Positions 6,237 through 24,830 of a stretch of DNA of 62,720 nucleotides are shown piece after piece. A program made the position numbers and the translations under genes. The stretch comes from Promethearchaeia archaeon (GTDB lineage: Archaea > Asgardarchaeota > Lokiarchaeia > Sigyniarchaeales > SOKP01): NCBI GenBank assembly GCA_029856105.1, contig JAHQWH010000013.1, positions 1-62,720 of the forward strand, given 5' to 3'. The notes beneath the pieces were generated by a model, which saw nothing but the letters and a program-made list of their open reading frames with translations, was not told the origin of the DNA and searched no databases. The stretch's first letter is position 1. Each line of letters opens with the position of its first letter.

Positions 6237-7361
6237 TCATCCATCTCCGTTCCCTGCTTTTTCGATTGACTCCGTTTTCTTTTTTTTTCGCTTGTATTTT
6301 TCGTAGCGAACCCTGTTTATTTCGACAACTTCCCTTAATTCTTCGATTTTCTTAATCCTATAACTCTTTATCAGCGTTTTATACCGTATTTCGTGCCCTA
6401 ACTCTAATTCGTGGTCGATTAGCCGAACGTGGATGGTTTGCGGAAACTTTCCTCCCGTTATCACTAACCCTTTTTTTATTCTTCTTGTTGGTTTTTTGCA
6501 AACTTTACATTTGTGGGGGATGTATTTCGTTACCGTGTGAATAGGTTCTAAATGCTTAGAACTTACGAACCCCGTCGTCTCGTAGGCAGGCTTTAGTTTT
6601 CCGTCGTCTTTTCTCCACAACGCGCAATGGGTAAGTGTGTAAAAAAGCGTGTGGTAAGCGTCTTCCCTGCTTCCAAAATTAACGTAGACCCAATCTTTAA
6701 ATTTTTCCCTAAAATCGTTCGCGTGTAGCACGTAACCGTACCCTATGTAGTGAAAGTGGGGGCTTAGAACCCGTTTTAAGTCTTTGGTTTCGCAAGAACA
6801 CTCGTAGTCTTTTTTTCCGCAAGTTCTACACTGCTTAACCCATAGATCGAGTATTAAAACTCCTCCAAACAGTCCAGATTCTTCTAAAATAGTTTTTACG
6901 ACGAGTTCCCTTCTAAATTTGAGAAAGCTATCGTAATTAGTTAGTATTTCCTTCATTAGCTCTTTTGTCGGGCTTAAGGCGATGTGCTTTACCATACCAA
7001 TTTTAACGCCTTCTTTTGACGCTTTGGCTCTAAGTTCTTTTAATTTCCCGTTTAAATCTCTCGCTCTCGTCGAGGAAGCTTGGATAAAACAAGTTTCGCA
7101 ATCCATTTTGTTGCAATGGTTGTAATGTAGCGTGAGGCTTTTGTATACGTGGTCTTTACACGCGCTAGCTCCTCGAAAGGTGTTGCAGTTGTCCCTGTAC
7201 CTCCCGTCGTCGTGCGTTTTCTCGAAATTCCCGCTCCCAGCGATTATCCAGTTTGCTATTCTCTCGAATTCTAAAGTTTGGTTCTCTTTTATCTGGTCTA
7301 TTACGTTAAATTTGCTTTCAGTTAGGGTTTCTACTTCTACAGCCATTTTTTGTCGTTGCAA
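6237..7361 (-). CDS. HUH rolling-circle initiator/transposase (IS91 / SNJ1 RepA-like)
   Basis: N-terminal Cys cluster (C..C..CNKMDCETC), motif I KHIALSP, GLFGG, motif II SPHFHYIGYG, motif III YHTLFYTLTH, C-terminal CKVC; likely start is the ATG at 7346. Confidence 0.8.
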   Translation of the reverse strand: MQRQKMAVEVETLTESKFNVIDQIKENQTLEFERIANWIIAGSGNFEKTHDDGRYRDNCNTFRGASACKDHVYKSLTLHYNHCNKMDCETCFIQASSTRARDLNGKLKELRAKASKEGVKIGMVKHIALSPTKELMKEILTNYDSFLKFRRELVVKTILEESGLFGGVLILDLWVKQCRTCGKKDYECSCETKDLKRVLSPHFHYIGYGYVLHANDFREKFKDWVYVNFGSREDAYHTLFYTLTHCALWRKDDGKLKPAYETTGFVSSKHLEPIHTVTKYIPHKCKVCKKPTRRIKKGLVITGGKFPQTIHVRLIDHELELGHEIRYKTLIKSYRIKKIEELREVVEINRVRYEKYKRKKKKTESIEKAGNGDG

Positions 7362-7449: not shown

Positions 7450-7653
7450 CTAAATCTGTTATTTCTCTTAAGAATTCCCCCTTCAATCATTTTGAATAAT
7501 CATTAGATTCTTTAAAATATAATTAATTCTTTTCTTTGAATTATTTCATTTTTTATCTATAAAATCACCCAATTCATATTCCATGATATCTAACTTTAAT
7601 AAAAACATTTTAAAGATTCTTTCTATATGAACCTACCAAAAAATCGGAAAAAA

Positions 7654-8949
7654 TTACTGTTTATTAATATTAAGTTTTTTATGTTTAATAGTACTGGGGT
7701 AAGGAAAATTCCCCCTCAATAGGATGACAATAATTTTAAATCCTTTTTCTTCAAATACGCTAACATCTTTAGTGGAATAATTCTTGGTTTTCTCTGTATT
7801 ATCGTAAACAACAAGAAATCCCACATCTTCCTTTCTATTATAACAATAGTATGCAACTTGATCCTTATGAGCTTCATAGATTTTATCTAAGTCTTGTTCC
7901 GTGTCTTCCACCTTGACATCAACGGGATAATTGTAGATCAAGAAATCAATATCTCCCTTTGCCACTTTCTTGTGGTTTTCTACTTTAGAACCTAAATTGG
8001 AATATAATTGACGATATACCTTATTGTGAAAATCCTCTTCGTCAATATCTTCTTTAGTTTTAAAAAGCGGAATTTGTAGATGTGAACCGTATATGGATAA
8101 AAGATTATCGATAACGGCATTAAACTGCCTTTTGCTCCTCACTTTCTCGTCAATCTCACTACAAATTGCTTTCTTAATCCTTTTTATTTGGTTTTCAAGA
8201 ACAACTTCTGGATAATTTTCATTCCAGTATTCGTCAATTTTATCAAGGATTCGTCTTATACCCTTTCGAGTGCAGCTAAAGAATAGGGAAAGATTCTCCA
8301 TTATTTTCCAACCAGTAGTGTTAAATATTTGCTTGGAGAAATCGGGGGGTCCTGTTCGTGAAGTATATTCGGGGTCTACTGAATCGTAATAATCACCATA
8401 TATACGCCATTTAGTATCTTCATAAATTGTGATTCCATTTCCATCTTTCACGCCAATAGCAAATTCAACGCAATATTTATCAAATTTAGGATCATCTTGA
8501 GGGATTTCGTCTTGATTTCTTGAAACAGCATCATTCTTACTAGAACCCCAAATATCCCAGTAATATAGCATAATTAATGCAAGTTCGTCTTTTTCGTTTA
8601 AGAATTCTACATAAGCTAATAATTCATTAATTATAGCTGAATGCTCTTCAGTGAAGGTCTTTATTTTTTGAATAATTTCTTCATAAGATTCATAAGAAGG
8701 ATTGTTCTTTAATTGATGCATCTGATCTCTGAAGTCTTCTAAAACTTTCAATATATATCGTGTCTTTTCTTCCAATTCATCGATGTTTCTCTCTTTATCT
8801 TTAATCCACCATCGATAAATATGAATTGGTTTGTAATTATTCTTCTTTATATAGATATTCTCGGCTGTCACGAAATACTTGTGAATACGACCAATTGTCA
8901 GTGTTGCTCCTTCAAATAAATCTTTGTGCAACTCTTTGAACGATGCCAT
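7654..8949 (-). CDS. Protein with C-terminal PD-(D/E)XK nuclease domain and unknown N-terminal domain
   Basis: EEDFH...GDIDFLIYNYPVDVKVE...DQVAYYC...GFLVVYD. Confidence 0.72.
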   Translation of the reverse strand: MASFKELHKDLFEGATLTIGRIHKYFVTAENIYIKKNNYKPIHIYRWWIKDKERNIDELEEKTRYILKVLEDFRDQMHQLKNNPSYESYEEIIQKIKTFTEEHSAIINELLAYVEFLNEKDELALIMLYYWDIWGSSKNDAVSRNQDEIPQDDPKFDKYCVEFAIGVKDGNGITIYEDTKWRIYGDYYDSVDPEYTSRTGPPDFSKQIFNTTGWKIMENLSLFFSCTRKGIRRILDKIDEYWNENYPEVVLENQIKRIKKAICSEIDEKVRSKRQFNAVIDNLLSIYGSHLQIPLFKTKEDIDEEDFHNKVYRQLYSNLGSKVENHKKVAKGDIDFLIYNYPVDVKVEDTEQDLDKIYEAHKDQVAYYCYNRKEDVGFLVVYDNTEKTKNYSTKDVSVFEEKGFKIIVILLRGNFPYPSTIKHKKLNINKQ

Positions 8950-9179
8950 TTTTTAATGATATTTTATTTCAATTTTTTTTCTAAATTTTTCTTTAAATAA
9001 TAATGAAAATATTGAAGTATTAAAGTTTAGGTTGAAATAACTATTTTGAATACAGAAAGAAAATTGAAAATATTATGTTTTTTTATATGAAGTGATGGTG
9101 AAAATAACAATAATTCCACAATATGAACACCGTACTATCTTTATTTTTTTCTATTAAACCTTTCATTCCATTATTCTTG

Positions 9180-11231
9180 CTAATAAAAATCATATAATTT
9201 CGTTTGTTTTTTATCATCGTCCATTGATATCTTGTTTGCGATTTCATTTCTAACGATTTCTTCACTTTGTAATAATTGTTCATTATCTGAGTGGTTTTCT
9301 TTATCATTAGATATGGTGTCAATTTTCAATTCTTCTATATCTTCGCGTGTTTCATCTATTTGAAATGCTAATATAAAATTAATTATTTTTGGTAAAACCT
9401 CGCTCATATTTTCTATTGAAAGATTTTTAGCAAATGTAAAAGCTTTAAGACCTTTTTTGTCTCCGTGTTGCGTTATTCCGATTAATTTTTCAAAATTAGG
9501 ATTTATTGTAATTAAACCAATTTTATTATTGCCTATTGAAATAAGCTCATTTATCTTATTATTTTCCTTAAATCGTCTTTTCTTCCCTTGAATTTGCTCA
9601 ATTTTTCGATTATCATATCCTAACTCTCGTAATTTATCTGCAGATTTTTCTTGTTCAGCGGTTAACGGATCAATATCGTGAATAACGATAATCGGTTTAT
9701 CGTAATAGAATAATATCTTGATAAAATAAGATAGCATAGTTTTTCCACCGCATTCTACTATTGAGAAATTTAATTTATCAAAATTTTTACCCATTAGCTC
9801 AGCAACGTGAGATAATACAATTTTTTCCACATTACCTTCAACTAATATAACTTTTTTTGCAAAAAACATTTCGTTTCTTTCAGGATTGAATCTCATTAAA
9901 AGTTCATATTCTTTTTGCACCTTTGGTTTAAATAACTCTTTTTCTATAAAACTTATTCGAGAACCCGTTTCTATCGGTTCTTTAATTGTTAATCCTATTG
10001 ATAAATAGTTACTTATATCAATGAAATTAGAACTATGAGTGCTATAAAACACTTGATCGTATTCAGATATTAGAATTAATATATCTCTAAGGGATTTCTG
10101 TGCTTGGGGATGTAAATATAATTCAGGCTCTTCTATTATAAATAAAAATGGTTTATCTTCTGAAATTCCTTTATCTTTTATCTTATTCTTTAGATATTCT
10201 GAATATGTAATAAAAAGAGAAAAAATTAATGCTCTTTTTAATCCATCGCCTTTATTTTCTATTGAGCTTTCTATTCCGTCATTAATTATTATATCCGTAT
10301 TCGTAAAAAAATCTTGTAATCTTGGGGGAAAAATCTTAATTTCTATGCTATTTGTAGCAATATTTTGATTTAAATTTTTCAATAAATTACTTTCAATTTG
10401 TTTAATTATTTCAAATCGTTTATCTTCTTCATCTTCTCCTTTTTTTAGAAGGGTTTCTAGCTCGTTGCGATTTTTTTTAAATTCTTCAATTATCTTTGAA
10501 TCGTCCGAATTGTCCTCTATGCTTTTTAAAATTATTTTCTCTAAAATTTTTTTATAAATTGATTTACTTTTTTCAGATGTTTTTACTTCTTCCGAAATTT
10601 TTTTTGTCGCCTCAATGTATAACACTTCTGGTAAAAAGCTAGAAATTTCTTTCCATTTTAGTTTTGTACTACACTCTTTTTTTTTGAGTTCACATTCATT
10701 ACCTTTTTCTTTTATAAATTGAGGTATAGCTTTTTCTACACTTGCTTTAGTTATTTTCCCTTTATCATTTTTAATTCCATCTTCATAATCATGTTCCTTA
10801 AAAAAGTTAATAATTGCTTCGCTATTTTCTCCCCATTTATTAAATTTACTACCATCAAAATGGGGAATTTCTGGAAGTTCTCGCGTTATTAGAAGATCTG
10901 ATGAAACTCTTTCAGTTTCTTCGTTCATCGATATAATTTTTGTTATAATTAGATTGTTATCACACAAGTAATCTTCAAAAAATATATTTTCCAACTCGGT
11001 TAAATTGAAAAATGTTATTGATATTTTAATCAAGTTTTTTATGGTCTTTTGAAAAAAATCTTCTTGTGTAATTCCAGCAACAGAACTTTTAAAGAATAAG
11101 TCTATAGCTCTAAAAACATTTGTTTTCCCTGAATTGTTTTCTCCAATCAATTGTAAAAAGTTATTTTTTATTTTAATGGTTAATTTCTTTATGGAGCGAT
11201 AATTCTCAATTGATATCGTTTCTATTAACAT
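9180..11231 (-). CDS. OLD-family ATP-dependent nuclease (ABC ATPase + TOPRIM)
   Basis: IENYRSI, Walker A GENNSGKT, signature KGDGLKR, Walker B IEEPELYLHP, STHS, TOPRIM LVEG...CGGK...DID. Confidence 0.9.
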   Translation of the reverse strand: MLIETISIENYRSIKKLTIKIKNNFLQLIGENNSGKTNVFRAIDLFFKSSVAGITQEDFFQKTIKNLIKISITFFNLTELENIFFEDYLCDNNLIITKIISMNEETERVSSDLLITRELPEIPHFDGSKFNKWGENSEAIINFFKEHDYEDGIKNDKGKITKASVEKAIPQFIKEKGNECELKKKECSTKLKWKEISSFLPEVLYIEATKKISEEVKTSEKSKSIYKKILEKIILKSIEDNSDDSKIIEEFKKNRNELETLLKKGEDEEDKRFEIIKQIESNLLKNLNQNIATNSIEIKIFPPRLQDFFTNTDIIINDGIESSIENKGDGLKRALIFSLFITYSEYLKNKIKDKGISEDKPFLFIIEEPELYLHPQAQKSLRDILILISEYDQVFYSTHSSNFIDISNYLSIGLTIKEPIETGSRISFIEKELFKPKVQKEYELLMRFNPERNEMFFAKKVILVEGNVEKIVLSHVAELMGKNFDKLNFSIVECGGKTMLSYFIKILFYYDKPIIVIHDIDPLTAEQEKSADKLRELGYDNRKIEQIQGKKRRFKENNKINELISIGNNKIGLITINPNFEKLIGITQHGDKKGLKAFTFAKNLSIENMSEVLPKIINFILAFQIDETREDIEELKIDTISNDKENHSDNEQLLQSEEIVRNEIANKISMDDDKKQTKLYDFY

Positions 11232-11502
11232 GTTCTGATTTTAGATTTAATTGTTTATTTTGTGTATTATCAAAAAAAAAAAGGGTTCAAACTTTTGTCT
11301 TACCTAAGCTAAATTCTATTAATTCAATTTATCTGTTTTTCAATAACAGAGTAGAATTTAAGGTTTTTATATTTGTGTCAATTTTTATTATTATTTTTTT
11401 TCTTTTTTGCTCGTTTTATCTGCGTGCGACTGAATTCTTCGGGCAGCTTTAGAGGTTATTTTATTTTTTCCCATACAAACACCTATGAAATGTGATTTTG
11501 AT

Positions 11503-12438
11503 TTATTTACCGAAAAGTTTCTCCCACTGGTTGTTTTTAGCTAAGTTGTTCGCGTGTCGTAGTTTATTATTAAAAGTGCTTACTTGTTTCTTATTGTAAT
11601 CGTTTAGAATTGATTTATAAGTGTATACTCTATCTTTTAATATCAATTCGTTATCAAAATGTTTTCCGAAAAGAATGACAGATTCTCTAAAAAAAGTTCG
11701 TACAGCACCTTTCCACCCGTTTATTTCGTGATCAATAAAAATTTCTTCGACTAATCTTTGAATCACATAAGATTTTAACGGTTTTTTCCAATGCCAGTTC
11801 CAATATTTTAGTAGCAAAATGAGCTTTGTTCCGTTACCGTGGTGTTTCTTGTTCAATTTGTTAAGTCCTTTTTCCTCGGATTTTAGATTAATTTTTTTTT
11901 GGTCATTCCATCCATCAGGAACGAGCAATAAGTTTTTAGGTAACTCTATCGCAGGAATGCAATCCATCTTCAGAACCTTATTTTGATAATGTAATTCAAT
12001 GGGTATGGCGTGAGTGCGTGGAAGTGCCTTTAATATTACAAGGTCTTTGTTAATTCTTTCGTGAATTGTGTCTAAATCGTCATATAATGTCGTGAACATG
12101 CATTCTCCGTCTAAAATTTCGAGGTTTAAAGAAAATCCATCGTTTTCCTTGTATATCATATAGATATCGATGTCAAACTTTTTATTTATGTGCACTCCTA
12201 AATCAAAAGAGCCACCGTACCAAAATCCTTTCACTTGGACAGCGTTAGAAAATTCTTGAATAGCATTTTGGGGAGGAGTGAATATCCATTCTGATACCTT
12301 GATTAGTTCTTTTTTCACATAATTAACCTGATTTCTAAGATATTTTTCTTTTCCTTCCTTAATGGTTAAACCGTCAATTAATTGTTCAAACCAATGTTCT
12401 GTATATTTTTTCGACAAATCAGTAATTAAAGAAAACAT
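11503..12438 (-). CDS. cGAS/DncV/OAS-like nucleotidyltransferase (CD-NTase/SMODS)
   Basis: GGSFDLGVHINKKFDIDI catalytic motif, third Asp in MDCIPA, LLVPD, helical KLILLLKYWN...LKSYVIQRLV. Confidence 0.82.
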   Translation of the reverse strand: MFSLITDLSKKYTEHWFEQLIDGLTIKEGKEKYLRNQVNYVKKELIKVSEWIFTPPQNAIQEFSNAVQVKGFWYGGSFDLGVHINKKFDIDIYMIYKENDGFSLNLEILDGECMFTTLYDDLDTIHERINKDLVILKALPRTHAIPIELHYQNKVLKMDCIPAIELPKNLLLVPDGWNDQKKINLKSEEKGLNKLNKKHHGNGTKLILLLKYWNWHWKKPLKSYVIQRLVEEIFIDHEINGWKGAVRTFFRESVILFGKHFDNELILKDRVYTYKSILNDYNKKQVSTFNNKLRHANNLAKNNQWEKLFGK

Positions 12439-12553
12439 GCATATTTAAATTTGATCATCTTAGAACCATCAGTAAAATGAAAAGTTTATAAAAATTAGAT
12501 CTGAACAGTTAAACCTTTTTATTTCGAAAGTGGTATATTTCTTTCTCCAATTA

Positions 12554-15535
12554 TTAAAAATCTAATAAGCTTTTTTGACTCTTTTCATATACCTTTTTTG
12601 CGCCTTTTAAATCTAATTTCCTTTTTTTTACTCTTTTTCCATCATCCAAAAGAATTTCGGGATCAACACCCTTTCTTCTTGCGTCTGATATCTTTATTAC
12701 TACTTCACTAAGCTCATCAACTAATTCCTCTGAGTTTAATCCAGATAATACTGCTTTATCAAGCTTTTTGAGTTTTGCATAATACTCATCTGTGTTTATT
12801 GGCACATCTTGTAATTCTCTGAATCTCATTTTTATATTTTGTTTTTGATCCTCTGATAATTTAGAAGGATCTGGAATTTTCATAGTCTCGACTTCATATA
12901 TTACTACTCTAGAAGCGCCCCCTCCAGTGGTTCTTCCTTCAATCTCTCTAACGAGTTTGAAGTAATTTGAATTAAGAATCCCCGCTATTACATCCCTATC
13001 AATATCCTCTTTCAAATTAATATCATATAAGTTACGATCGGCAACAATTCCGTCTAAATTAACGGGTATAAAAATACGTTCCCAACAAGTTTCAGGTATA
13101 AACATATCTGGGATTGAAAGCTCTCCAAGATTAAACCAACATTGATATCTGTTTCTGTTAGCGATACACGTAGGTCTTAAATGTGGAAGTTTATGAGAAC
13201 CCCAATCTCTTTCCCACATATTGTGAATTATGTAAGAATAAGTTCCTTGATATCCATCATCATATAAACATTTTAAAATATACCGTTCTAAATTAGTTAA
13301 GTCTTTTAAATTCGCGTTCGAAGGTAAATCTGGTAGTTTTATAATTTGTAGATCCTTTTCTGCGAAATTTTTTAATTTCTTATAAATATAATTATTTAAA
13401 TCAAGAACCATAAATTTTGAATTAGACTTCCTAAAAGAAATTGTTTCAGTTTGCCTTATCGATTTTGCTATAGGTCTAAGAAATTTCATATTTATACCCC
13501 ACTTTTTGTATTCAGCTTCCTCTATGTAAAAAAAATCGTTACATCCACTGGTTATTCTCCTGCTTATAGTTACTATTTCTTTTAATTCTAGCATGTCGGA
13601 TCGCGAAATTATGTCCCAATATATATTGGGGGCATAGATAAATTTATCCCATTTTCTTTCTCTACAAAGATCTTTCTGGCTTTTACTTAAAATTCTTATT
13701 TGGTTATTTTCCAAAAGTGTCTCAGGTTCACTCTTTTCTGAAACTCTAGATATGATTTCATCTAATTTCATTTTTCTTTTAATTCGTATAAATTTTACAA
13801 CATTTTCATTTCTCTTTTCTTTCTCTTCACACTTGGTTAAAAGAGTAATACATGTTGGAACTAAAGCCTCTTCAAAAACACTTTTAGAAAACTCAATTAC
13901 TGCTTGAATTTTAAATGTATTTAAAAAAAAGTCTTGTAAATCTTCTCCATACCTAGTTGTTAGCCATTTATTAGATGTAATAAATCCTAATCTCCCATTA
14001 TTATCTAAAAATTCTGAAGAATGAGTAAAAAAATAAACATAAATATCTGATCTATCACTAAATTTTTTATATCCTATTCTTTTTAGATGTCTTCGGCATA
14101 ACTCTTTATTCGCTATTTTTTCTTGTCGTATATAAGGAGGATTACCAATAATCACATTTACTTTTGTGGGAACATTTAATTTTGTAGAATCGGTCACTTT
14201 TTTGATACCACTAATTGTTGCTAATTCAACAACAATTCTATTCTGTTTAGGATTAAGATTAAAGTAATCTTGAACCTCAAGATTTAAACTCTTCGTGTTA
14301 GAATTTAAATCTCTTAAAGCGAGGTTGATTGCCGTTAAATGTATTGGAAATCGATTTATATCAATTCCGTATAATTGATTTAATAACTCGTTATGTGTTT
14401 TTATAATTTTCTCTTTTTTATTAATAGCCTTTAATCTTTCATATGCCCCTACCAGAAAACTACCGCTACCACAACCAGGATCCAACAAACGATCATTTGC
14501 ATCTAATATAGTTAATTTAGTTATTAAATCTACAACTTCTTTTGGTGTGTAATATTGTCCTAAATCGTGTCTTTCTTTAATGGGGATAATACTTTCGTAG
14601 ATCTTTCCCACAACATCATGATCGAACTGTGATAAGTCATATTGTTCAAGTTCCTCTAAAAATTCCTTTATTTCAACTACAACCTCGTCGTTAAACGGTA
14701 CTTCATCAAAAATGGGATCATGTTCATATACAACTTCAAAATCTATTTTGTTTATTAGTTCCATAAATTTTTCTTTTAAAGAATTAGCAAAATCATCAGT
14801 TTCTTCGATGGTTAGTTTAGGAATCTTTTCGTAGGCAGGTTGATCTTCAATAATTTTATAAAAAACCAATTTATTCATCAAAAGATATGCCCATTGCGTA
14901 TTAAATCGCATTAGACTTTCAGCAAAATTTGCAAAAGCCCATCCTTGATTTTTTATCCATTCCTCAATATTTTTTTTAAACTGAATATTTGCATTAAGCT
15001 TCTCGTAAACACCATGCTTGTTTTTTAATATTAACCGATTGTGAAAGCCCTTTAAACGCTTTATAAAAGCTTGATGTCGTGGATCCCATTTTCTAATGCC
15101 TTTTTCTAAACCTGCTACTTCTTTAAGTAATGAGGGAGTAAATTCACCTATGTTTTTTACTAAGTAAGCGCTAGTTTTTCTTTCAAGTAAATGAGTTCCT
15201 TCTTCAAATGTGTGAAATAAAACAAGAGTATCGCCGTTATAAGTTGCGAAATAATTCGCTCCTATTTTCGAGGCGTACCCAAATGCTTGTTCTATTACTT
15301 TAGGAGAGTAAGGGTCAAGATCTCTTTTATATCCTCCTTTCATCTTTCTCTTAGCTTCAATTACCAAAAAGGGTCTTCTATTCTCAACATAAATAACGAT
15401 ATCTGCAAAACCGCTATTCACTTTTACTTCCGGTCTTACACTTGTAAATTTAATTCCATGATATTCTTTACCTTGTTGGATACTGTTTTTCAAATGTCTA
15501 TAGAGTTCAAAATGAATTATAGCTTCTGTGCTCAT
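12554..15535 (-). CDS. Type IIG fused restriction endonuclease / N6-adenine methyltransferase
   Basis: N-terminal ADIV..IEAK..QAFGYA nuclease; GQYYTP, LLDPGCGSGSFL (motif I), GNPPY (motif IV); C-terminal target-recognition region. Confidence 0.9.
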   Translation of the reverse strand: MSTEAIIHFELYRHLKNSIQQGKEYHGIKFTSVRPEVKVNSGFADIVIYVENRRPFLVIEAKRKMKGGYKRDLDPYSPKVIEQAFGYASKIGANYFATYNGDTLVLFHTFEEGTHLLERKTSAYLVKNIGEFTPSLLKEVAGLEKGIRKWDPRHQAFIKRLKGFHNRLILKNKHGVYEKLNANIQFKKNIEEWIKNQGWAFANFAESLMRFNTQWAYLLMNKLVFYKIIEDQPAYEKIPKLTIEETDDFANSLKEKFMELINKIDFEVVYEHDPIFDEVPFNDEVVVEIKEFLEELEQYDLSQFDHDVVGKIYESIIPIKERHDLGQYYTPKEVVDLITKLTILDANDRLLDPGCGSGSFLVGAYERLKAINKKEKIIKTHNELLNQLYGIDINRFPIHLTAINLALRDLNSNTKSLNLEVQDYFNLNPKQNRIVVELATISGIKKVTDSTKLNVPTKVNVIIGNPPYIRQEKIANKELCRRHLKRIGYKKFSDRSDIYVYFFTHSSEFLDNNGRLGFITSNKWLTTRYGEDLQDFFLNTFKIQAVIEFSKSVFEEALVPTCITLLTKCEEKEKRNENVVKFIRIKRKMKLDEIISRVSEKSEPETLLENNQIRILSKSQKDLCRERKWDKFIYAPNIYWDIISRSDMLELKEIVTISRRITSGCNDFFYIEEAEYKKWGINMKFLRPIAKSIRQTETISFRKSNSKFMVLDLNNYIYKKLKNFAEKDLQIIKLPDLPSNANLKDLTNLERYILKCLYDDGYQGTYSYIIHNMWERDWGSHKLPHLRPTCIANRNRYQCWFNLGELSIPDMFIPETCWERIFIPVNLDGIVADRNLYDINLKEDIDRDVIAGILNSNYFKLVREIEGRTTGGGASRVVIYEVETMKIPDPSKLSEDQKQNIKMRFRELQDVPINTDEYYAKLKKLDKAVLSGLNSEELVDELSEVVIKISDARRKGVDPEILLDDGKRVKKRKLDLKGAKKVYEKSQKSLLDF

Positions 15536-15672
15536 TCTTCATAACCTTATTTTATTGAATCAATTGATTCTCCTAAAACATCAATATATTTTAATGGAAT
15601 AAATATTTTTACGACTTTTTTATAATTATCTGTTAATATTTCTTCGGATTCATTATTTTTAAAGAAAAAAAA

Positions 15673-16188
15673 TCAAAAATGTAGTTGTTTAAAAGCCCCT
15701 TCTCTTTTCCATCTTGTTTGATCTCTACCAGGTGTTTCAAGATCTAGAGCGCAAATACCATTTTTTAAAATCAAAATTTCATCTCTAAAGGGAGCGATAA
15801 TTTTCTCTACATTTAATTCTCCAATTTTTACAATGTTTGGCACTGATTGTTTTTGATTACGGGCTACTGGCTTATTATATCGATATTGAAAACTTTTTTG
15901 CTCTATGGTGTTTTTTCTCAATGCTTCAATTAATAATTTTCCTAATGGTCTTATTTCATGTGGCAAGACATAAAGATCAGCTCTTAAGTGTTGACCAGGT
16001 ATTCGCATTTTACTTATGATATAGTCTGATATTTTTATAACAAGAAAAAGGATTTGGTTCAAATTTTCATAGGAAAAATTAAGCGACACAGTTTCAGTTT
16101 CAGACGGATGCTCAAGAACCTGTAATTTTTTAGTCCAATAAACTTTAAAGTGCCTACCTTCACAATTATAACTAAAGTAGGTTGTCAT
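15673..16188 (-). CDS. Hypothetical protein
   Basis: 171-aa ATG ORF, co-oriented with neighbours; no reliable motif. Confidence 0.55.
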   Translation of the reverse strand: MTTYFSYNCEGRHFKVYWTKKLQVLEHPSETETVSLNFSYENLNQILFLVIKISDYIISKMRIPGQHLRADLYVLPHEIRPLGKLLIEALRKNTIEQKSFQYRYNKPVARNQKQSVPNIVKIGELNVEKIIAPFRDEILILKNGICALDLETPGRDQTRWKREGAFKQLHF

Positions 16189-16510
16189 TTCATTAACTCA
16201 AGAAGTTTTGATTAATTGAGAATTCATCTTATGATTGATTAAAATTTTATTCTTATAATAAACTTAATTAAACTTTGTTTTAAGGATAGAGGTCATTACA
16301 AAATGTTAATTGAATAAATCTTTAGGATTATATATAATTTGTAATTGATTTTAATATTAAGATAATTTCTCCCTATTAATACATATCTCTTTATGGTTAG
16401 TTAATATTTTAATTTATTCTTCCTAAATAAGCTTAGATTTACCTTTATTCCTTATCTTATCGATATTTTCCAAAAATCACAATTCTCTTTATTGATTATT
16501 ACTTTTTAAT

Positions 16511-17458
16511 TCAAATCCGAAATATCTTATGTGGATTATTACCTATTTCCCATTTTAGCAAATTTTTATATAATACATATTTTTTCAAATGATTTAATCC
16601 AAAAGCAACCTCAAAGAATTTATGTATATCTAAACTTGGCATTCTGCAGTCTTTTTTTCTTTTTGATAAAAAAGTATTTATTCCAACTGCCAATATAGAA
16701 AAAGCGTCATGCCCTTGACAAAATTGGCAAATTAAATTTTTATCGAAGGATTTAAGTTCTTCTTCTAATTCATTTTTAAGCCTTTTTTTAAAATCAGAAG
16801 TTTTATCATTAGTCACTATGATATCTGTAATTAATCTATTAATATCAATTTCAAGTGAATTATTTTTAATTAAACTGTAATAATTTAGTGTTTTAAATAA
16901 TAAATTAAAATTCTTCAAATCATTTATCCATCTTAAGATACCGATAGTTTTAGTACTATCTAATATATATTCACGTAATTTATTGGCAATTTCTTCGTCC
17001 TTAATATTAGTTTTATATTTTTTTTTTAAATGATGTTTTATTCGTTCTTTTTCAGTACAATGGCGATTAAAAAATTTATTAAAAACTTTTGATTTTAACA
17101 TCATAATATTAATATCATGATAATCTGTTCGAAATAATGATTTATGAACATAAAATTTCTTGTTTGTATAATCAAAATCTGCATCTACTATAGCAACAAT
17201 ACCTATTACAGAAAATTGACCGGATAATTCTCTATATAATATTTTTAAAGCTTCAATAGATACTTTCTTATCACCAGAAACCTTAATAATTACATCTTTG
17301 TGCTTGAAATTGTCATTCCAGAGATTTAAATCAGCTTCCCCTTCAACGATTAAATAGGTTTTGTTTTCTCTAGTCTCTTGATATTGCGTTAAAATTGATG
17401 TAGCAAATGCTTTAGCGCTTATTCTTATCATTTTTCTCTTAATCTCAAGAAGATTCAA
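16511..17458 (-). CDS. DUF4435/TOPRIM-like nuclease (PARIS AriB-like)
   Basis: LIVEGEAD, IVDADFD, TDYHDINIMM, CQGHD; overlaps the upstream ATPase by 14 nt. Confidence 0.82.
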   Translation of the reverse strand: MNLLEIKRKMIRISAKAFATSILTQYQETRENKTYLIVEGEADLNLWNDNFKHKDVIIKVSGDKKVSIEALKILYRELSGQFSVIGIVAIVDADFDYTNKKFYVHKSLFRTDYHDINIMMLKSKVFNKFFNRHCTEKERIKHHLKKKYKTNIKDEEIANKLREYILDSTKTIGILRWINDLKNFNLLFKTLNYYSLIKNNSLEIDINRLITDIIVTNDKTSDFKKRLKNELEEELKSFDKNLICQFCQGHDAFSILAVGINTFLSKRKKDCRMPSLDIHKFFEVAFGLNHLKKYVLYKNLLKWEIGNNPHKIFRI

Positions 17459-18896
17459 TTTTTTCTAGCCTTCTAATAAGCCCGAAACGACCATTGATTA
17501 TTTCTGAAGAATGTGTTGCTATCAAAAAATATAATGATTTTTCTTTTCCCATTTTAATAATATCATCGACAAAATTATTTTGCCAGATTGAATGAAGTGA
17601 TATTTCGGGTTCATCTATTAGGACTAATGCATTTTTCTCTGCTTTAAAAATTAAGTTATAGGATAGTACAACGATGTGTTGTTCCCCTGATGATAATTTA
17701 TCACTAGATAATTTTTCGTCTAAGTTTGTGAAAAAATAAAAACCGTCATTACTATCAAACATTATATCCTTTTCATTTAAATGATTATTAACCACATCTC
17801 TAAATAATCTAAGTTTGTTCATTAAGTCTTTAAATTGTAAATGTTTTTTATTTGTATCATCCACCCATAGTGATATAGACTTAGCGATCTCAGAAATCTC
17901 AAGATTTTCTTTATTAATTTCAGCGATCTCTTTTTCCTTTTTAGTTACTAAACCAAATGAAATTAATTCCTCTTCCAGCTGTCTAATTTCTTCTATTTGT
18001 TTTTCAAGCACAGAACTTGTTGGAAATTTTTCTTTTTCGGTTTTTAAAATATCAACAACACGTTTAGGAAAAGTTCTATTCAGAGTTTGGGAAATCTCAT
18101 TATAATTTCCAATAAATTCATCTTTTATTTCTTGTAATTGTCTAGAAAAAATAGAGATTACTCTTTCAGGCTCAAGTTCGTCCGACGGGATGGAATATTT
18201 GGAAAACCTTCTTTTATCAAATTTTTTATATTGAACCAATCTTTCAGATTCAATATACAATAATGGATTGAATTTTATAACATCATAAAACCATTGAGAT
18301 ATTGGAATTTTTTTTTTTTCAAAAAATAGTTCAAAGAGACTAAATACTTCATGTGGGCTAAGTTCTTTTGTATATATGTAATATTCTTTATTAATTTTCC
18401 TTAATTCAAGGATCAAGTCGTAGATTTCATCGTAATTGTTGTTTTTAAATAATTCAATAAATTTTTCTGCCAAATCAGTGTGTATTAAATAATTATAGAA
18501 AGATATATAATCAAAAGGTTTCTTTTTATAACTCCTTGAAATTCTTTTTATTATTTGTAAATCAATAGGTTTCCATTTTCTTTTAGAGCTTTTAGAAAAT
18601 AGAATAACTTCAGATTTTTCTGGTTTATCACCTTTTTTATATTCAATGAAAGAACCGTTTTTTAATTTAAGAGTAAAAGATTTAAAATTATTTTTTTCCA
18701 AACTAATGAAATTCAATGATAAAATATTATGAATCATTCTAAGAATTGTTGTCTTTCCTGTTCCATTTAATCCATAGATTATAGTAACATTTGGATCTTC
18801 ATTAAAGTCAATGTCATAATTTTTTGTATTAAATAAATCTTCTACTTTTACTCCAATTATTCTCAAATCATCTTTTTCTACTGTCATTTTATTCAA
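17445..18896 (-). CDS. ABC-type ATPase (PARIS AriA-like)
   Basis: Walker A GLNGTGKT, LSSGEQ, Walker B LIDEPEISLH, ATHS. Confidence 0.88.
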   Translation of the reverse strand: MNKMTVEKDDLRIIGVKVEDLFNTKNYDIDFNEDPNVTIIYGLNGTGKTTILRMIHNILSLNFISLEKNNFKSFTLKLKNGSFIEYKKGDKPEKSEVILFSKSSKRKWKPIDLQIIKRISRSYKKKPFDYISFYNYLIHTDLAEKFIELFKNNNYDEIYDLILELRKINKEYYIYTKELSPHEVFSLFELFFEKKKIPISQWFYDVIKFNPLLYIESERLVQYKKFDKRRFSKYSIPSDELEPERVISIFSRQLQEIKDEFIGNYNEISQTLNRTFPKRVVDILKTEKEKFPTSSVLEKQIEEIRQLEEELISFGLVTKKEKEIAEINKENLEISEIAKSISLWVDDTNKKHLQFKDLMNKLRLFRDVVNNHLNEKDIMFDSNDGFYFFTNLDEKLSSDKLSSGEQHIVVLSYNLIFKAEKNALVLIDEPEISLHSIWQNNFVDDIIKMGKEKSLYFLIATHSSEIINGRFGLIRRLEKIESS

Positions 18897-19150
18897 CGAT
18901 TTATATGTATTGGTTTTAATTTTTATCTTTTGCTAATAATTTGGAATTTATATATATAGGTATATTAATTTTTGCCAATTGTTGACACAATTTATTCAAT
19001 ATAAATAATAATGTCTTATCATATTTATATTAAGAATTATCAAAACAATGTTTAACAGACAAATAAAAATTCTTAACTACAGAAACTGTCTAAAAATGCA
19101 AATATTAATAAAATTCTTAAACTTATGATTCAAATTCTATCTTTTGATTA

Positions 19151-20875
19151 TCATTCCTTGTCCTTATCCGTCTCTTCCAAAAATCCTTCGGTTAGCAATA
19201 AGTTATCGATAAACTTATCAAATTCCTCAACCTTTTTGTCTTCCTCTTCCAATTTGACCGAACACAGTTCGCAATAATCGGAGTTTGTCTCGATTTCTTT
19301 CCCGCAAAACTTACAAAAACTTTTCGTTTCAAGTTTTTTTTCTCTTGATATCGTGCCTTCTTTTTGCGTTTCCTTTTGCTTTTTTGTCTGTTCCAAAATC
19401 TCCTCGTTTTTTTTCGCGATTTCCTCGTCCGAAAGCCAACTCCTCTTAACGTGTTCCGATTCCATCGCGAACGGTTTCTCGATCGAATTCACTCTGATTA
19501 TGCACTGCCCCCTTTTTAACATCGACAAGTATTCCTTCTGCCAATCCTTTAAATTGAGTAACTCTTGCATCAAATCTTTTTGCATGTGTACTTGAAACGA
19601 AACGAGCACCCCGCAATTTGCTAATATTTCTCTGCTAATGTTAGGGCGGGTCGCGAGCGAAATCAAACATTCACCAGTCCCCCTCAACAACAACGCGATA
19701 TCCTCGATGTAAGAAGTGAGTTTTGTTCTACTACTAAGTTCTTGGGGGGCGAAATACTGCGCGTCCTCTATTATCGTTACGTGTTTAATTCCCTCGTAAT
19801 TTTTGCTCCCCGTTTCTATGTTTTTGTCCCACAAATATTTTAGCACCATGTTCAAAAAAAACAACGCGTCTTCTTTTTCTCCCCCTTTGCGGATGATCGA
19901 GCTCAAGTCTAATAAAACCCTGTGGTTAAACAGTTCTTTCACGTTAAGACCGCTTTTCTTGTCGAATATGTTTTTTAACGTGCTTACAGAATAGCGACGA
20001 ATTCTATTTCTGATAGCTTGAACGCTTTTTTTCATGGTAAAATCTTCTTGTTTCGCGTAGTATTTATCAAATTCGCTAAAAAACTTGTCCCAGCTCCTAT
20101 TTTCTTCTTTTGGACAAATTTCGTATAGAATGTCGATAAATACTTTTTCCATTTGAGGCGAATAATCGACATTCTCTAACAAACCCCCGCTCTCAAAGAT
20201 TTTAAACACCCGTTCCGCGTGAATGTGCGGGTCGCCCCCTTCGGGATCGAAAATGTTAATCGAAAAGTTCTCGCCCGGCTTTAATATAAGCAAATTGTCG
20301 ATTTTCTTCTGCAAAAATTGGTATTCCCCCTTAAATTCCGTTAAAAGAAAGGGGACGTCGTATTTTTTAGTAAAATCCAACAGAAAACGTTGCAAAAAAT
20401 TGCTTTTTCCCGTCCCCGTCGTTCCGCACACAAACATTTGTTGCGCTAAATCTTCAATGTTGAGGTTAAATTTATGCTTTACTTTGTTCTTGTCGATAAT
20501 TCTTCCTATGTTTATGTTCCCGATCTTAGATTCGGATTTTGACGGATATTCCATTATCAATTCGAATATTTTCGGAGATTTAAAAGTATATATGAACAAA
20601 ATTGAAGAAATTACTAAAATTAATTGAGAACACCCTATAAAAACTATTTCTATAATAGATGACGATGGCTCTGCTGTAAATATTTCTAAATTAATTATAA
20701 AAAAAACGAATAAAATCACAAACATAACTATAATAACGCATCGCATCGCTATTATCATAATGCGGTGCTTTATATCTCGTTTCTTACGCTTCTCTTTTGA
20801 ATCTGAGAAAAATATAAACAAAATAAGAGCAAAAGGAATAAGCGATAAAATAAAATACGGTAGTAGCGCGTCCAT
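19151..20875 (-). CDS. Membrane-anchored HerA/FtsK-family ATPase with C-terminal zinc ribbon
   Basis: Three N-terminal TM segments; GTTGTGKS; EFKGEY; SINIFD; Walker B IIEDAQ; LRGTG..LATRP; CKFC...CELC. Confidence 0.82.
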   Translation of the reverse strand: MDALLPYFILSLIPFALILFIFFSDSKEKRKKRDIKHRIMIIAMRCVIIVMFVILFVFFIINLEIFTAEPSSSIIEIVFIGCSQLILVISSILFIYTFKSPKIFELIMEYPSKSESKIGNINIGRIIDKNKVKHKFNLNIEDLAQQMFVCGTTGTGKSNFLQRFLLDFTKKYDVPFLLTEFKGEYQFLQKKIDNLLILKPGENFSINIFDPEGGDPHIHAERVFKIFESGGLLENVDYSPQMEKVFIDILYEICPKEENRSWDKFFSEFDKYYAKQEDFTMKKSVQAIRNRIRRYSVSTLKNIFDKKSGLNVKELFNHRVLLDLSSIIRKGGEKEDALFFLNMVLKYLWDKNIETGSKNYEGIKHVTIIEDAQYFAPQELSSRTKLTSYIEDIALLLRGTGECLISLATRPNISREILANCGVLVSFQVHMQKDLMQELLNLKDWQKEYLSMLKRGQCIIRVNSIEKPFAMESEHVKRSWLSDEEIAKKNEEILEQTKKQKETQKEGTISREKKLETKSFCKFCGKEIETNSDYCELCSVKLEEEDKKVEEFDKFIDNLLLTEGFLEETDKDKE

Positions 20876-20977: not shown

Positions 20978-23239
20978 CTAATTTTGTTCAGGTTTTTCAA
21001 AAAAATTCGGCAATATATCGAATAGCTCGATCATACTATTATTTAAACTTTCTGCAGATTCAAATGAAATTATTGATAATCCACGAATTTTAAGTTTTCT
21101 TTTGTTTTCTTTTATAATACTGATGATTTTATATTGTTCTGAATTTTCTTCAATGAGTTCTTTAAATTTTTCTATTTCTTCTATATGATTGTGAGTAATC
21201 AAAATCTGACGCGAATAATCGTTAGTAGATATAACTAAAGGATTGAAATTTACAAATACCCTTTTAAATTCTCCTAAATCACCAGTAAAAAGCTTGCGAT
21301 CACTTTGTAATTGTAAGGTTTTCAATCTATACCCAGGATATATCTTTATTATACTTTTAGATAGTGTAGTTTGAAAATTATTAAATAAAGCGTCATGTTG
21401 TCCTAGAATCTGATTGGTTGTTGCTTCAAGATTTTCCCTTCTATACTCAAACGGAGGTTTTTCATTTTTTAAAGTATTATAAATTACAAAATTTCCTTCG
21501 TTAATTACACTAGGATTATAACCCCATTCACTTAATTCTTGTGAGAATTTATAAGGAGTTGATTTAAAACTATTTAATTCAATCAATTCCACTCCTTTTA
21601 TTTTTCTCTTAGCGTTATACACTGGTAATAAAAAATCTCTAAACTGCTCAAAAACTTGCAAATAGCGTTGCTCAAACTCAGTTAGTTGGTCTAGTTTATC
21701 AGGCGGTTCTTTTGGTATCTTTCCAATGTATTGGTAATTTCTTATTGGCGTTTGAAACCCTCTTATCATTTTCTTTTCTTCTTTTGCAATTCTGAAAGCT
21801 CCAAGTCGATGTAATAGAGAATTAAAATCTCTAATAATTTCTTCGTTAATTGTTTCACCAGATGGATCATCAATAGTCAGATTTGGACTTAAGTTAAATA
21901 CGTAATGTGCGTGCTTGAAAAGTTGTCTTAAAAGCATTTCGTTTTTTTCCCACTCGTTAAATCTCGCAGATATATATTTTTCTTCAAAAATTATTACGCT
22001 AGATCTATAAAATCTATTTTTTTGTATATCTTCATCGTTCTCTTCATATATAATGACAGGATTATCGTTTTCATCAAAATCTACGATTCTTGATTTAATG
22101 TACGATTTTAGATCAAACAAATCGTTACTAGCTTCAAAAAATAGAGCATTTCTTAGTATTGAAATACTATCATTTTCAAAACTTGAAGTATTTAAAACGA
22201 TTTGTGTAAAATAATTATTTAAATCAGACCAATTCGGTCTTGAAAGAAAATATTTTGACGTAAAATAAGTATATTCTTTTGCTCTATATATTATACTTTG
22301 ATTTTGTGAAAGTATACCCTCCAAATCGAATATTTCTTCTCCTCCTATAAAAATAAATAGAGCATCTGAAAGCGTAAATAAGTTTTTAAAGAATTTTAAA
22401 ACTTCTATCACTTGCTCAGGGTTAAGTTTATCCAATTCATCTATAATATAGATTAACTTTTGACCGCTATCTCTAATTTCCCTATGTATTCTCTCCAAAT
22501 CGTATTCGATATTGCCGATACTTGCGTCGAATTTATATAATAACTCTGATTTTTTATCCTTCAAATTAATTATCTTGTTTGTTTTGCTTTTAGAATAAAT
22601 ATAATTTAGAGATAAGGGAAAGGGCAAAGCAATTATAAGCGATAATAGATCATTTAGCCACTCTATTGGTATTATCTTTGTAAAAATTAATAATAATGAT
22701 ACTAACCATGGGACAAGAAAAATTAATATCCTCAAATCCTTAAAGGTGAAATTAATAGAAGAGCTTTGTTGTCTAATAATTTCATCAGAAATTTGACTTT
22801 TTAAGCTGATAGTTTCTGATTTCTCGTAATTAGAAGCTATAGTTTTATAGTATAAATCAGTTATCAAGGAATTGACTTTATCGTCTAAAGAACCCACGTC
22901 CCGTGTCATTGAATAAAGCCTTCTTATTAAGTTTTCTAAGATTTTCTTTGCTTCAATGTTATCCTTTACGGATTCGGCTTCGAGCTGGGCGGCGTTAAGG
23001 AGAATGGGGATTATTGTACTATCTTTTTTTTTTAATTCCCAAAGTGTTTTATAAACGAACGATGTTTTTCCGACTCCACGATGTCCACAAACCAATATTG
23101 ATCCTGTTTCTCTTCTTTTCAACTCGTTAATTAGAAAAGATAATTCTTTCTTTCTGCCTATAAAAAGACCTTTTATTTTACTCTTGGTGTATGGAAATCT
23201 TATCGGAATGTCCCAATTACTTTTTAATGTTATCTCCAT
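20978..23239 (-). CDS. KAP-family P-loop NTPase
   Basis: Walker A GHRGVGKT; two TM helices inserted in the NTPase domain; Walker B IIDELDKL; FIFIG. Confidence 0.8.
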   Translation of the reverse strand: MEITLKSNWDIPIRFPYTKSKIKGLFIGRKKELSFLINELKRRETGSILVCGHRGVGKTSFVYKTLWELKKKDSTIIPILLNAAQLEAESVKDNIEAKKILENLIRRLYSMTRDVGSLDDKVNSLITDLYYKTIASNYEKSETISLKSQISDEIIRQQSSSINFTFKDLRILIFLVPWLVSLLLIFTKIIPIEWLNDLLSLIIALPFPLSLNYIYSKSKTNKIINLKDKKSELLYKFDASIGNIEYDLERIHREIRDSGQKLIYIIDELDKLNPEQVIEVLKFFKNLFTLSDALFIFIGGEEIFDLEGILSQNQSIIYRAKEYTYFTSKYFLSRPNWSDLNNYFTQIVLNTSSFENDSISILRNALFFEASNDLFDLKSYIKSRIVDFDENDNPVIIYEENDEDIQKNRFYRSSVIIFEEKYISARFNEWEKNEMLLRQLFKHAHYVFNLSPNLTIDDPSGETINEEIIRDFNSLLHRLGAFRIAKEEKKMIRGFQTPIRNYQYIGKIPKEPPDKLDQLTEFEQRYLQVFEQFRDFLLPVYNAKRKIKGVELIELNSFKSTPYKFSQELSEWGYNPSVINEGNFVIYNTLKNEKPPFEYRRENLEATTNQILGQHDALFNNFQTTLSKSIIKIYPGYRLKTLQLQSDRKLFTGDLGEFKRVFVNFNPLVISTNDYSRQILITHNHIEEIEKFKELIEENSEQYKIISIIKENKRKLKIRGLSIISFESAESLNNSMIELFDILPNFFEKPEQN

Positions 23240-23429
23240 CTAAAATCATCGTTGAATTTTATTTGTTTGTTAAAAAAATTAAACTGAAAACATGATTAGT
23301 ATTTTTCTATAATTTACTTGTTGGATTTTAATAAGTTAAAAATGATTTACTTATTTAAATCTTTATGTGATTGTTGTTACTTGAAGTCTGGAAAAAGTAG
23401 AGTTAATATCGCGAAAAAAAAGCCATAAA

Positions 23430-24830
23430 CTACAAGTTTTTAAATCTTCCTTTTGAATCTCTTGAATAATTCTTAGTTATCTGTTTCATTTTATTTTTAT
23501 GTCTTTCTTGAGAACATTTGGGACACCAAGAACCTTCTGGTCTCGACGGTTTTCCCCTTATATCGCTCGGAGTTGCCTTCCAAGTAAAATCGTGCTTGTT
23601 ACAGTACCATTCTAAAGGTATTACTTCTCCAAAAAAATGGTGTGACAATAGCTTTCCGTCCCGTTGCTTCGCAATTTCCTGCAATTCTTTTACGTAATTA
23701 GGTAAAGAAACGTCAAACTTTCTCCAATCTATTTTCTTTGCTTTCGGTGGCGGATAAATTCCGTTCGCTACGCAGGTTTTCCTAATGTAAGTTTCCATCT
23801 CCTTAATTTTAATCTTGCGTAATTTTCCATTTCTCCACTCGTAACCGACTTCGATCAATACGATTCCGCGTCTCTCGCATTCTTTACGCTTATAATCGTC
23901 AGCTCGTTTTTGTTTTTCGAAAAGCTTAGGATTATCTCTGTGAAAATATGGGTGGTAAACGTAGTGTTGTATGCCCTGACTTTCGAAAGCTAGTTTTAGC
24001 TCCTCGTTGTATCCGTCCAAATGTAAACCGTATTTTTTTAACCAAGATAATTTGTTTTCTTTACGAAATTCTTTTCCAAATAGTTCTTGAAAGAAATTCT
24101 TACATATCCTTTCTGATCTTCCGCTCGCACAATTAGGACACCAAGAACCTTCTGGTCTTTGTGGTTTACCAATCACGTCGCACGGTTTTGCTTCCCAAAC
24201 GTGTCCGCACGTTCCACATTTCCATAAATGGCGCTCTGTAACGCCTAAAAAGTTAGGCGATAAACATTCCCCTCCGCCCGCTTTTGATCCCGCAATTCTT
24301 TGCATGTCTTCAATCGTGTACCTGTAATTATTCTGCGGGTTTGATTCAATTGCACATCTTGGACACCAAGTACCTTTTTTCGAGGGATAATCTTTTATGG
24401 TGCTTGGTTTCGCTTTCCACGCGTAGTTATGTTTGTTACAATACCATAAATGCGGTTTTGTCGTTCCTAAAAACTCCGTCGATAATAGTTTTCCCCCTCG
24501 TTCTATCGCCAAGTTCTTAAAATATTCGAATAAAACAACTTTAGATTTTTTACTACAATAGGGACACTTAAAGGTATTTCTTTTAACCTTTTGTGTAATA
24601 TTAGCTCGAAAATCTGCCCATTTGTTCTTACATACAACGCACTCTAATTCGAGCGGAGCCATGTTGTTTAAGTATTCTTTTGATAAGACCGTTATATTTT
24701 CTTTGCGAGAAAGTTCAATTATTCTTTGTAAGTATTCGTTCCTTTTTTCTGGCGATAGTCTTGGTTTATTGAATTTGTAAGTTACTTTTGAATTACTGCG
24801 TTTCTTATCGTTTTTATTTTCGTTATTCAT
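23430..24830 (-). CDS. Zinc-ribbon repeat protein with Vsr/PD-(D/E)XK-like endonuclease domain
   Basis: Four C..H.W.A.P..I...G.WCP.C-type units (first degenerate); LHLDGYNEELKLAFESQGIQHY...DDYKRKEC. Confidence 0.8.
   Translation of the reverse strand: MNNENKNDKKRSNSKVTYKFNKPRLSPEKRNEYLQRIIELSRKENITVLSKEYLNNMAPLELECVVCKNKWADFRANITQKVKRNTFKCPYCSKKSKVVLFEYFKNLAIERGGKLLSTEFLGTTKPHLWYCNKHNYAWKAKPSTIKDYPSKKGTWCPRCAIESNPQNNYRYTIEDMQRIAGSKAGGGECLSPNFLGVTERHLWKCGTCGHVWEAKPCDVIGKPQRPEGSWCPNCASGRSERICKNFFQELFGKEFRKENKLSWLKKYGLHLDGYNEELKLAFESQGIQHYVYHPYFHRDNPKLFEKQKRADDYKRKECERRGIVLIEVGYEWRNGKLRKIKIKEMETYIRKTCVANGIYPPPKAKKIDWRKFDVSLPNYVKELQEIAKQRDGKLLSHHFFGEVIPLEWYCNKHDFTWKATPSDIRGKPSRPEGSWCPKCSQERHKNKMKQITKNYSRDSKGRFKNL

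Follow-up and report, generated by a model that had tools for sequence, protein, structure and literature searches.

Archaeal proteins described as binding the sliding clamp PCNA through a C-terminal PIP box include Fen1, the DP2 subunit of PolD, NucS/EndoMS, NreA and Pab0431 (PMC4929162; PMC3820547). These clients replicate and repair DNA and are encoded in the core genome, and those papers describe no restriction-modification or OLD enzyme as a client; the same literature records a putative adenine methylase that co-purified with NucS and PCNA. The eukaryotic DNA methylase DNMT1 is also recruited by PCNA (PMC9690074), and the published motifs for the beta clamp read Q-phi-x-L-F and Q-phi-x-L-x-L (10.64898/2026.05.27.728225). 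Restriction-modification enzymes fused in one chain and acting alone must distinguish new host DNA that is still unmodified from invading DNA that is unmodified too, an acknowledged puzzle (Loenen and colleagues, PMC3874165). Among OLD nucleases, that of phage P2 is triggered in bacteria by hairpins at a phage origin and by DNA ends, upon which it cleaves tRNA, in an account that mentions no link to the clamp (10.64898/2026.07.10.737580). According to a second-hand remark in an OLD preprint, an archaeal OLD homologue regulates replication.

We analysed a 62,720-nucleotide stretch of a Promethearchaeia contig (the window), in which three adjacent, co-oriented genes on the minus strand encode a type IIG restriction-modification enzyme, a CD-NTase-like nucleotidyltransferase and an OLD nuclease. 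Those close homologues that bear names in the databases come from Promethearchaeota, which makes the host a Lokiarchaeia-like Asgard archaeon. The original prediction held that the outer two enzymes carry PCNA-docking tails and that the three genes form a clamp-coupled module. Comparative support for the clamp link is unusually good, and for the proposed module there is none. PIP tethering, type IIG enzymes and OLD nucleases are each known. Their combination was not found in the literature that we searched, and that search, thin on subscription papers, returned no clamp-bound restriction-modification or OLD enzyme.

Two nucleases and their terminal motifs

The type IIG enzyme is a single chain of 993 residues (12554-15535, minus strand). 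Its assignment is borne out by N6_Mtase/Eco57I and HSDR_N-like nuclease domains, by a PADLOC match to REase_MTase_IIG (E 6e-44) and by its fold, best matched by BpuSI (3s1s, E 1.7e-26). The nuclease is of the PD-(D/E)xK type (E36, D45, E60, K62) and the methylase is of the gamma class of N6-adenine enzymes, with NPPY at residues 465-468; a target-recognition domain and a disordered tail follow. Across 139 sequences of the family, the nuclease residues are conserved, and so is NPPY. The enzyme thus resembles BpuSI, Eco57I, MmeI (5hr4) and DrdV (7lo5), which likewise combine a nuclease, a gamma-class methylase and a recognition domain in a single chain. Unlike Eco57I (PMC3874165), it has no companion methylase: no such gene lies beside it within the window, and none was found at 11 of 12 loci of the family, the twelfth having an unrelated type ISP piece. 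Lack of a companion methylase is a criterion of the type IIL (lone-strand, MmeI-like) enzymes, and on this point the enzyme agrees with them.

What sets it apart from known type IIG enzymes is an extra tail of 35 residues bearing a clamp motif that appears to track the host domain. Confidence in the AlphaFold model is high as far as about residue 955, and pLDDT is below 50 for most of residues 959-991; both pLDDT and composition mark residues 956-986 (12578-12670, minus strand) as a flexible tail. The chain ends, as had been claimed, in QKSLLDF, whose seven codons are the last of the gene (12557-12577, minus strand), and the PIP-type motif that they encode (Q987, L990, F993) falls within the flexible terminal segment. 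Measured against the PIP consensus Q-x-x-[LIM]-x-x-[FY]-[FY], it has the glutamine, the leucine and the first aromatic residue and lacks the second, since the chain ends there; the NreA-like and DUF72-like tails of the same host likewise end without it. A second conserved tail motif, L-x-G-A (residues 976-979; 12599-12610, minus strand), lies 9-13 residues upstream of the clamp motif in both archaeal-type and bacterial-type tails, and its G978 is nearly invariant. The tail had also been called basic. This is true of residues 956-993, which hold 11 K/R and 7 D/E, but the charge is not conserved and is acidic in halophile homologues, so we rejected the idea that a basic tail matters.

The second enzyme is a stand-alone ABC-ATPase/TOPRIM nuclease of the OLD family, 683 residues long (9180-11231, minus strand). 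It was correctly named: it has AAA_15 and OLD-like TOPRIM domains, its best solved match is the Thermus scotoductus OLD structure 6p74 (E 2.4e-50), and its Walker A, Walker B and TOPRIM residues (E465, D519/D521) are invariant. We found no UvrD helicase or retron beside it in the window, and the sole UvrD match is on another contig. Intact catalytic residues and the lack of a UvrD neighbour together indicate a class 1-type OLD, like those of T. scotoductus, P2 (P2 Old) and Vibrio (Vc OLD); Gabija (GajA with GajB) was rejected as no UvrD-like GajB adjoins the gene. Unlike these three, the present OLD carries a clade-specific tail of 45 residues. The stretch beyond the TOPRIM domain is acidic, as noted earlier (18 D/E and 8 K/R in residues 626-683), and it includes a variable linker confined to this clade (residues 639-675; 9207-9317, minus strand). 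The last eight codons encode QTKLYDFY exactly where it had been placed (9183-9206, minus strand), a strict PIP box (Q676, L679, F682, Y683) that matches the consensus in full.

To ask how often such endings arise by chance, we counted them in the 3.66-Mb assembly of the host (92% complete; 2969 predicted proteins), which has one PCNA gene. The strict terminal form QxxhxxAA occurs in six of the 2969 proteins, against 0.58 expected from internal pseudo-ends and 0.67 from shuffled tails, and the loose form QxxhxxA in 16, against about six expected. Per protein, the chance is about 2e-4 for the strict form, as in OLD, and about 2e-3 for the loose form, as in the IIG enzyme. A chance match is therefore unlikely for OLD, and the IIG match taken alone is the weaker of the two. 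The other convincing carriers are, as we judge from their sequences, presumably FEN1-like, PolD large subunit-like, NreA-like and DinB-like proteins and two DUF72 proteins. The terminal PIP-bearing proteins of this host are thus mostly known PCNA clients, and their enrichment and identities together suggest that this organism makes use of the motif. The OLD and IIG enzymes share their ending with the host's own replication and repair proteins; unlike those described archaeal clients, they are mobile defence enzymes.

Next to these counts we have a structure prediction. Co-folding of IIG residues 958-993 with host PCNA gave a score of 0.82, the best of three controls reaching 0.02; the runs shared at least 66% of their contacts, with a partner pLDDT of at least 50. 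Of solved complexes, 51 of 78 reach the mark that we used, as do 2 of 108 mismatched pairs. Contacts involve only IIG residues 983-993 and fall on PCNA residues 41-48, 128-135, 232 and 248-255, which we take to be the usual PIP pocket. The peptide is thus predicted to dock in the PCNA pocket of its host, with a score that measures likeness rather than proving binding, because PCNA-PIP complexes had already been solved. In the model, as in the described archaeal clients, a Q-x-x-h-x-x-aromatic motif at the end of a flexible tail occupies this pocket.

The tail motif across archaea and bacteria

If the motifs serve clamp binding, they should be kept while the linkers before them drift, a check proposed at the outset. 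For OLD, the tail is present in 8 of the 120 homologues matched (7 after merging a near-duplicate), all in one clade, and absent from the other 112. Every one of the 7 tailed members retains Q, L/M and F. By contrast, five homologues with 55-88% identity in the core have 11-24% in the linker. At 50% identity, the proteins of the sister clade are tail-less and stop about 45 residues earlier. A distant OLD of another family (25% identity) has a tail of its own with a PIP-type motif, which suggests that such a tail was gained a second time. We considered that the PIP box might have replaced a lost UvrD partner and rejected this, as UvrD stands at only one of three tail-less sister loci. As separate observations, the tail-less sister OLDs end a NurA-HerA-Mre11-Rad50 run in two genomes (L233:7153-17479 and L234:2712-10851), possibly a defence-associated second resection operon; UvrD follows in one of the genomes, and restriction genes adjoin in both. 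An 87% identical OLD from a genome of the same genus has a frameshift near residue 100 and keeps its strict PIP box (L052:18329-19998).

The IIG subfamily gave the same result on a wider sample. We took a census of 139 tails (the subfamily itself being put at about 120 homologues) and found 48 with a Q-type PIP motif, 52 with a PIP motif lacking Q, 16 with a beta-clamp-type motif and 23 with none. The Q-less forms are mostly S/T-T-L-x-D-F, and about half of the archaeal-type tails lack the glutamine; position 4 of the motif is L/I and position 7 is aromatic. Here too, then, the motif is retained and the linker is not. PIP-type tails are carried by Hadarchaeota, Methanonatronarchaeia, Halobacteria, haloarchaeal plasmids and the halovirus HRTV-11, and homologues exist in cultured Halorubrum and Halostella. 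The viral copy, which has intact active sites and a PIP-like end, belongs to a family member found beside an integrase in the haloviruses HRTV-11, HCTV-6 and HCTV-15 (L142:2968-6066). On a Halorubrum lacusprofundi plasmid an in-frame stop divides the gene, and the second of the two parts keeps the tail (L143:2001-4928).

The beta-clamp-type tails end in QxxLF (QQSLF, QRSLF) or QxxLxL (QIELSL, QMELGF), shortened to QLGF in four sequences, and fit the published beta-clamp consensus, some only partly. In trees built without the tail (IQ-TREE, quick search), they form two groups nested inside the PIP-bearing part, so that two motif changes are needed, forced by well-supported branches. Most contigs with such tails carry no taxonomic label; five of the beta-clamp-tailed members could be placed and all look bacterial, and a sixth is ambiguous. 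One sits in an Aegiribacteria genome in which we found a beta clamp and no PCNA, and whose MutS carries QLELGF. Contigs of others encode a TonB receptor, type IX secretion tails, a TrfA-like initiator or an alphaproteobacterial-like type ISP gene. Our searches of the Hadarchaeota and Natronomonas genomes turned up PCNA and no beta clamp. Judged by sequence, the IIG tail motif therefore tracks its host, with PIP forms in archaea and the halovirus and beta-clamp-type forms in the bacterial members that could be checked. This swap of motif from archaea to bacteria amounts to a natural experiment and argues for function independently of structure prediction.

About 70 more distant IIG homologues, from archaea and bacteria alike, have no such tail, so the tail marks a subfamily. 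It would be too simple to say that archaeal homologues all keep the motif and bacterial ones lose it, as distant archaeal members are tail-less and close bacterial ones carry another motif. The existence of tail-less homologues on both sides (these 70 IIG homologues and the 112 OLD matches) also implies that the clamp is dispensable for the core chemistry of either enzyme.

These comparisons bear on whether the two motifs could be accidental or vestigial, with no clamp binding in the cell. That about six of the 16 loose terminal matches in the genome are expected by chance, and that the IIG motif lacks its second aromatic residue, would be in keeping with this; the motif columns are nevertheless fixed while the linkers diverge, and the type of motif switches with the host domain, which makes an accidental origin highly improbable. 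The claim that both tails are PCNA-docking motifs is accordingly upheld as very probably correct, on conservation for both enzymes and on co-folding for the IIG peptide. We consider it very likely that the IIG enzyme really binds PCNA, and probable that OLD does.

An exchangeable slot in a mobile element

The gene between the two nucleases encodes a CD-NTase-like nucleotidyltransferase of 311 residues without a clamp motif (11503-12438, minus strand). Like the CBASS enzymes CdnC and CdnD (6p80, 6p82), it has the fold (TM about 0.7) and an intact active site (GS, DxD and the third Asp), at a sequence identity of 13-16% and with an NCBIfam score of 33 bits against a cut-off of 200. Unlike them, it has no HORMA, Trip13, NucC or other effector adjoining: neither Pfam nor PADLOC revealed a CBASS effector beside it in the window, and CBASS type III was rejected on these grounds. 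The family is confined to this archaeal group, and its members mostly stand alone among housekeeping genes in 21 related genomes (L155-L178); no shared neighbour emerged from 28 homologous loci with short flanks. Two genes near one close homologue, one of them for a C5 methylase, encode proteins with Q-less PIP-like peptides at the end (L232:2800-5443).

All three genes lie in an integrated element, whose extent is best seen by comparison with a sister element. The two match at 81-97% DNA identity, and the blastn blocks stop at 7526 and restart at 19139. Between these points is a variable cargo slot (7527-19138) with a 431-residue nuclease-like protein, OLD, the CD-NTase, the IIG enzyme, a 171-residue protein and a PARIS-like pair. 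The conserved backbone on either side includes an HUH rolling-circle Rep-like gene (6237-7361, minus strand), identified by comparison and by a Rep_1 match that is only a lead, and a membrane-anchored HerA/FtsK-like ATPase (19151-20875, minus strand), identified by its domains and by comparison. At the element in the window we saw neither an integrase nor a tRNA site, nor an att repeat that was convincing, and promoter and terminator scans stayed at chance level. Elements that combine an HUH Rep-like gene with a membrane HerA-like ATPase were found in 8 of the 134 genomes of the family that we searched (loci L195, L200, L203 and L205-L208).

Several genes of these elements deserve mention in their own right. 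The PARIS-like pair consists of overlapping genes for an ABC ATPase and an AriB-like protein (window 16511-18896; PADLOC E 1e-23 and 2e-13). The 431-residue protein directly downstream of OLD (window 7654-8949) has a C-terminal PD-(D/E)xK-like region and a weak LmuA match. After the ATPase come a KAP/STAND-like NTPase and a protein with three treble-clef zinc fingers (window 20978-24830), absent from the sister element. In other elements, large proteins of 640-715 residues between ATPase and Rep start with PIP-like N-terminal peptides (L203:3500-5611, L205:2024-4168, L208:3081-4994), one of them with a weak match to a Cas4-like nuclease. A related element encodes a 158-residue coiled-coil protein with a strict PIP box at its end (L140:6357-6830).

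The content of the slot differs from element to element. In the sister element it is a 2-kb pair of an endonuclease-like gene and an N4/N6 methylase (L195:11709-13568), the methylase ending in a PIP-type motif and its endonuclease-like partner lacking one. In each of three other elements, the gene immediately upstream of Rep is a tailed IIG or a tailed OLD, and in one the cyclase is found between ATPase and Rep. The IIG homologues at 64-65% identity have neither OLD nor a cyclase alongside, the 87% identical OLD is flanked by C5 methylase genes, and the other tailed OLDs have other neighbours. IIG, CD-NTase and OLD are thus separate arrivals, interchangeable cargo in one slot.

This leaves little of the predicted module, in which IIG, CD-NTase and OLD would form one clamp-coupled system and OLD would act as the effector to which the cyclase signals. 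In favour of this proposal, the genes lie next to one another in one orientation, and the CD-NTase is intact with no known effector alongside. Yet no homologous locus examined has two of the three genes adjacent (many contigs are short, and a longer-range linkage is possible), the cyclase family mostly stands alone, the intergenic gaps are 115 and 271 bases, and OLD has no known cyclic-nucleotide sensor domain. The middle protein, moreover, lacks a clamp motif, and the sister element fills its slot with a different restriction-modification pair. We therefore rejected a conserved three-gene module; gene context largely refutes the single-system reading, which we regard as barely credible.

Another possibility is that the tails serve the mobile element more than the defence of the host, riding on the PCNA of the host so as to label or protect the element's own replication by rolling circle, or to force the element to be maintained. 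The tailed homologues directly upstream of Rep-like genes would suit this, as would the family members that adjoin integrases or reside on plasmids and in viruses. However, members from many archaeal lineages and from bacteria have the same tail amid unrelated neighbours, and the slot content is freely exchanged, so that a role of this kind seems improbable.

What a clamp tether may serve

The explanation that we prefer, and on balance think probable as a whole, is that two unrelated defence enzymes gained PCNA-docking tails separately and came to share one mobile-element slot, each tethered to the clamp independently, with the IIG tether biased to methylation and the OLD tether serving surveillance. 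Clamps stay on newly copied DNA. A tether would therefore put the IIG methylase on those sites first. Without a companion methylase, the IIG enzyme would meet unmodified or half-modified host sites after replication; docking on the clamps left behind would concentrate it there, and it would methylate these sites before its own nuclease or that of another copy could cut. Incoming foreign DNA would carry no clamp yet and would be cut. OLD has no methylase, and surveillance is thus the natural reading for its tail, which may place the sensor-nuclease on clamp-loaded DNA, where ends and single-strand hairpins of the kind that trigger bacterial OLD proteins would arise during invader replication. 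Sequence, conservation, the host-matched type of motif, the intact active sites and the gene context are observed directly, and the docking pose of the IIG peptide is predicted; we infer real binding by the tails, the bias to methylation and everything that concerns OLD activation.

Alternatively, the IIG tail too may aim its nuclease at invaders, so that virus or plasmid DNA replicating with a loaded clamp is found and cut. The nuclease residues are as well conserved as those of the methylase, and for that reason sequence cannot tell which of the two activities the clamp serves; furthermore, the OLD of Vibrio nicks DNA and stops phage genomes from replicating (PMC12392090). Against this, clamps are constantly present on the host's own new, unmethylated DNA, where cutting would do most harm, the virus-borne IIG copy keeps its tail, and in the sister element it is the methylase and not the endonuclease that has the motif. 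The last two points fit methylation better than attack, and the indirect evidence favours a methylation role for the IIG tether, leaving nuclease targeting unlikely. Under the methylation reading, a virus replicating on host PCNA could itself be methylated and protected by the same tether.

If our preferred explanation holds, the IIG enzyme would be like DNMT1, a DNA methylase tethered to the clamp and acting on new DNA. The PIP box of DNMT1 lies in its N-terminal region, not at the C-terminus. The IIG motif is terminal rather than internal, and the enzyme modifies N6 of adenine and not C5, and has a nuclease; the likeness is one of analogy, not ancestry. More broadly, and as a tentative proposal that we rate somewhat short of probable, the IIG subfamily may use the clamp as a self-marker, methylating when bound and cutting when free; the link would be important enough for the tail to have changed from a PCNA motif to a beta-clamp motif on transfer to bacteria, and the Asgard OLD clade would have acquired the same tether for watching replication forks.

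A clamp tether would offer a concrete mechanism by which lone fused enzymes spare newly copied host DNA. If true, it would widen the list of archaeal PCNA clients to immune enzymes and would mean that replication-coupled methylation, as in DNMT1, arose by convergence in prokaryotes. It would also point to a general, undescribed coupling of immunity to replication.
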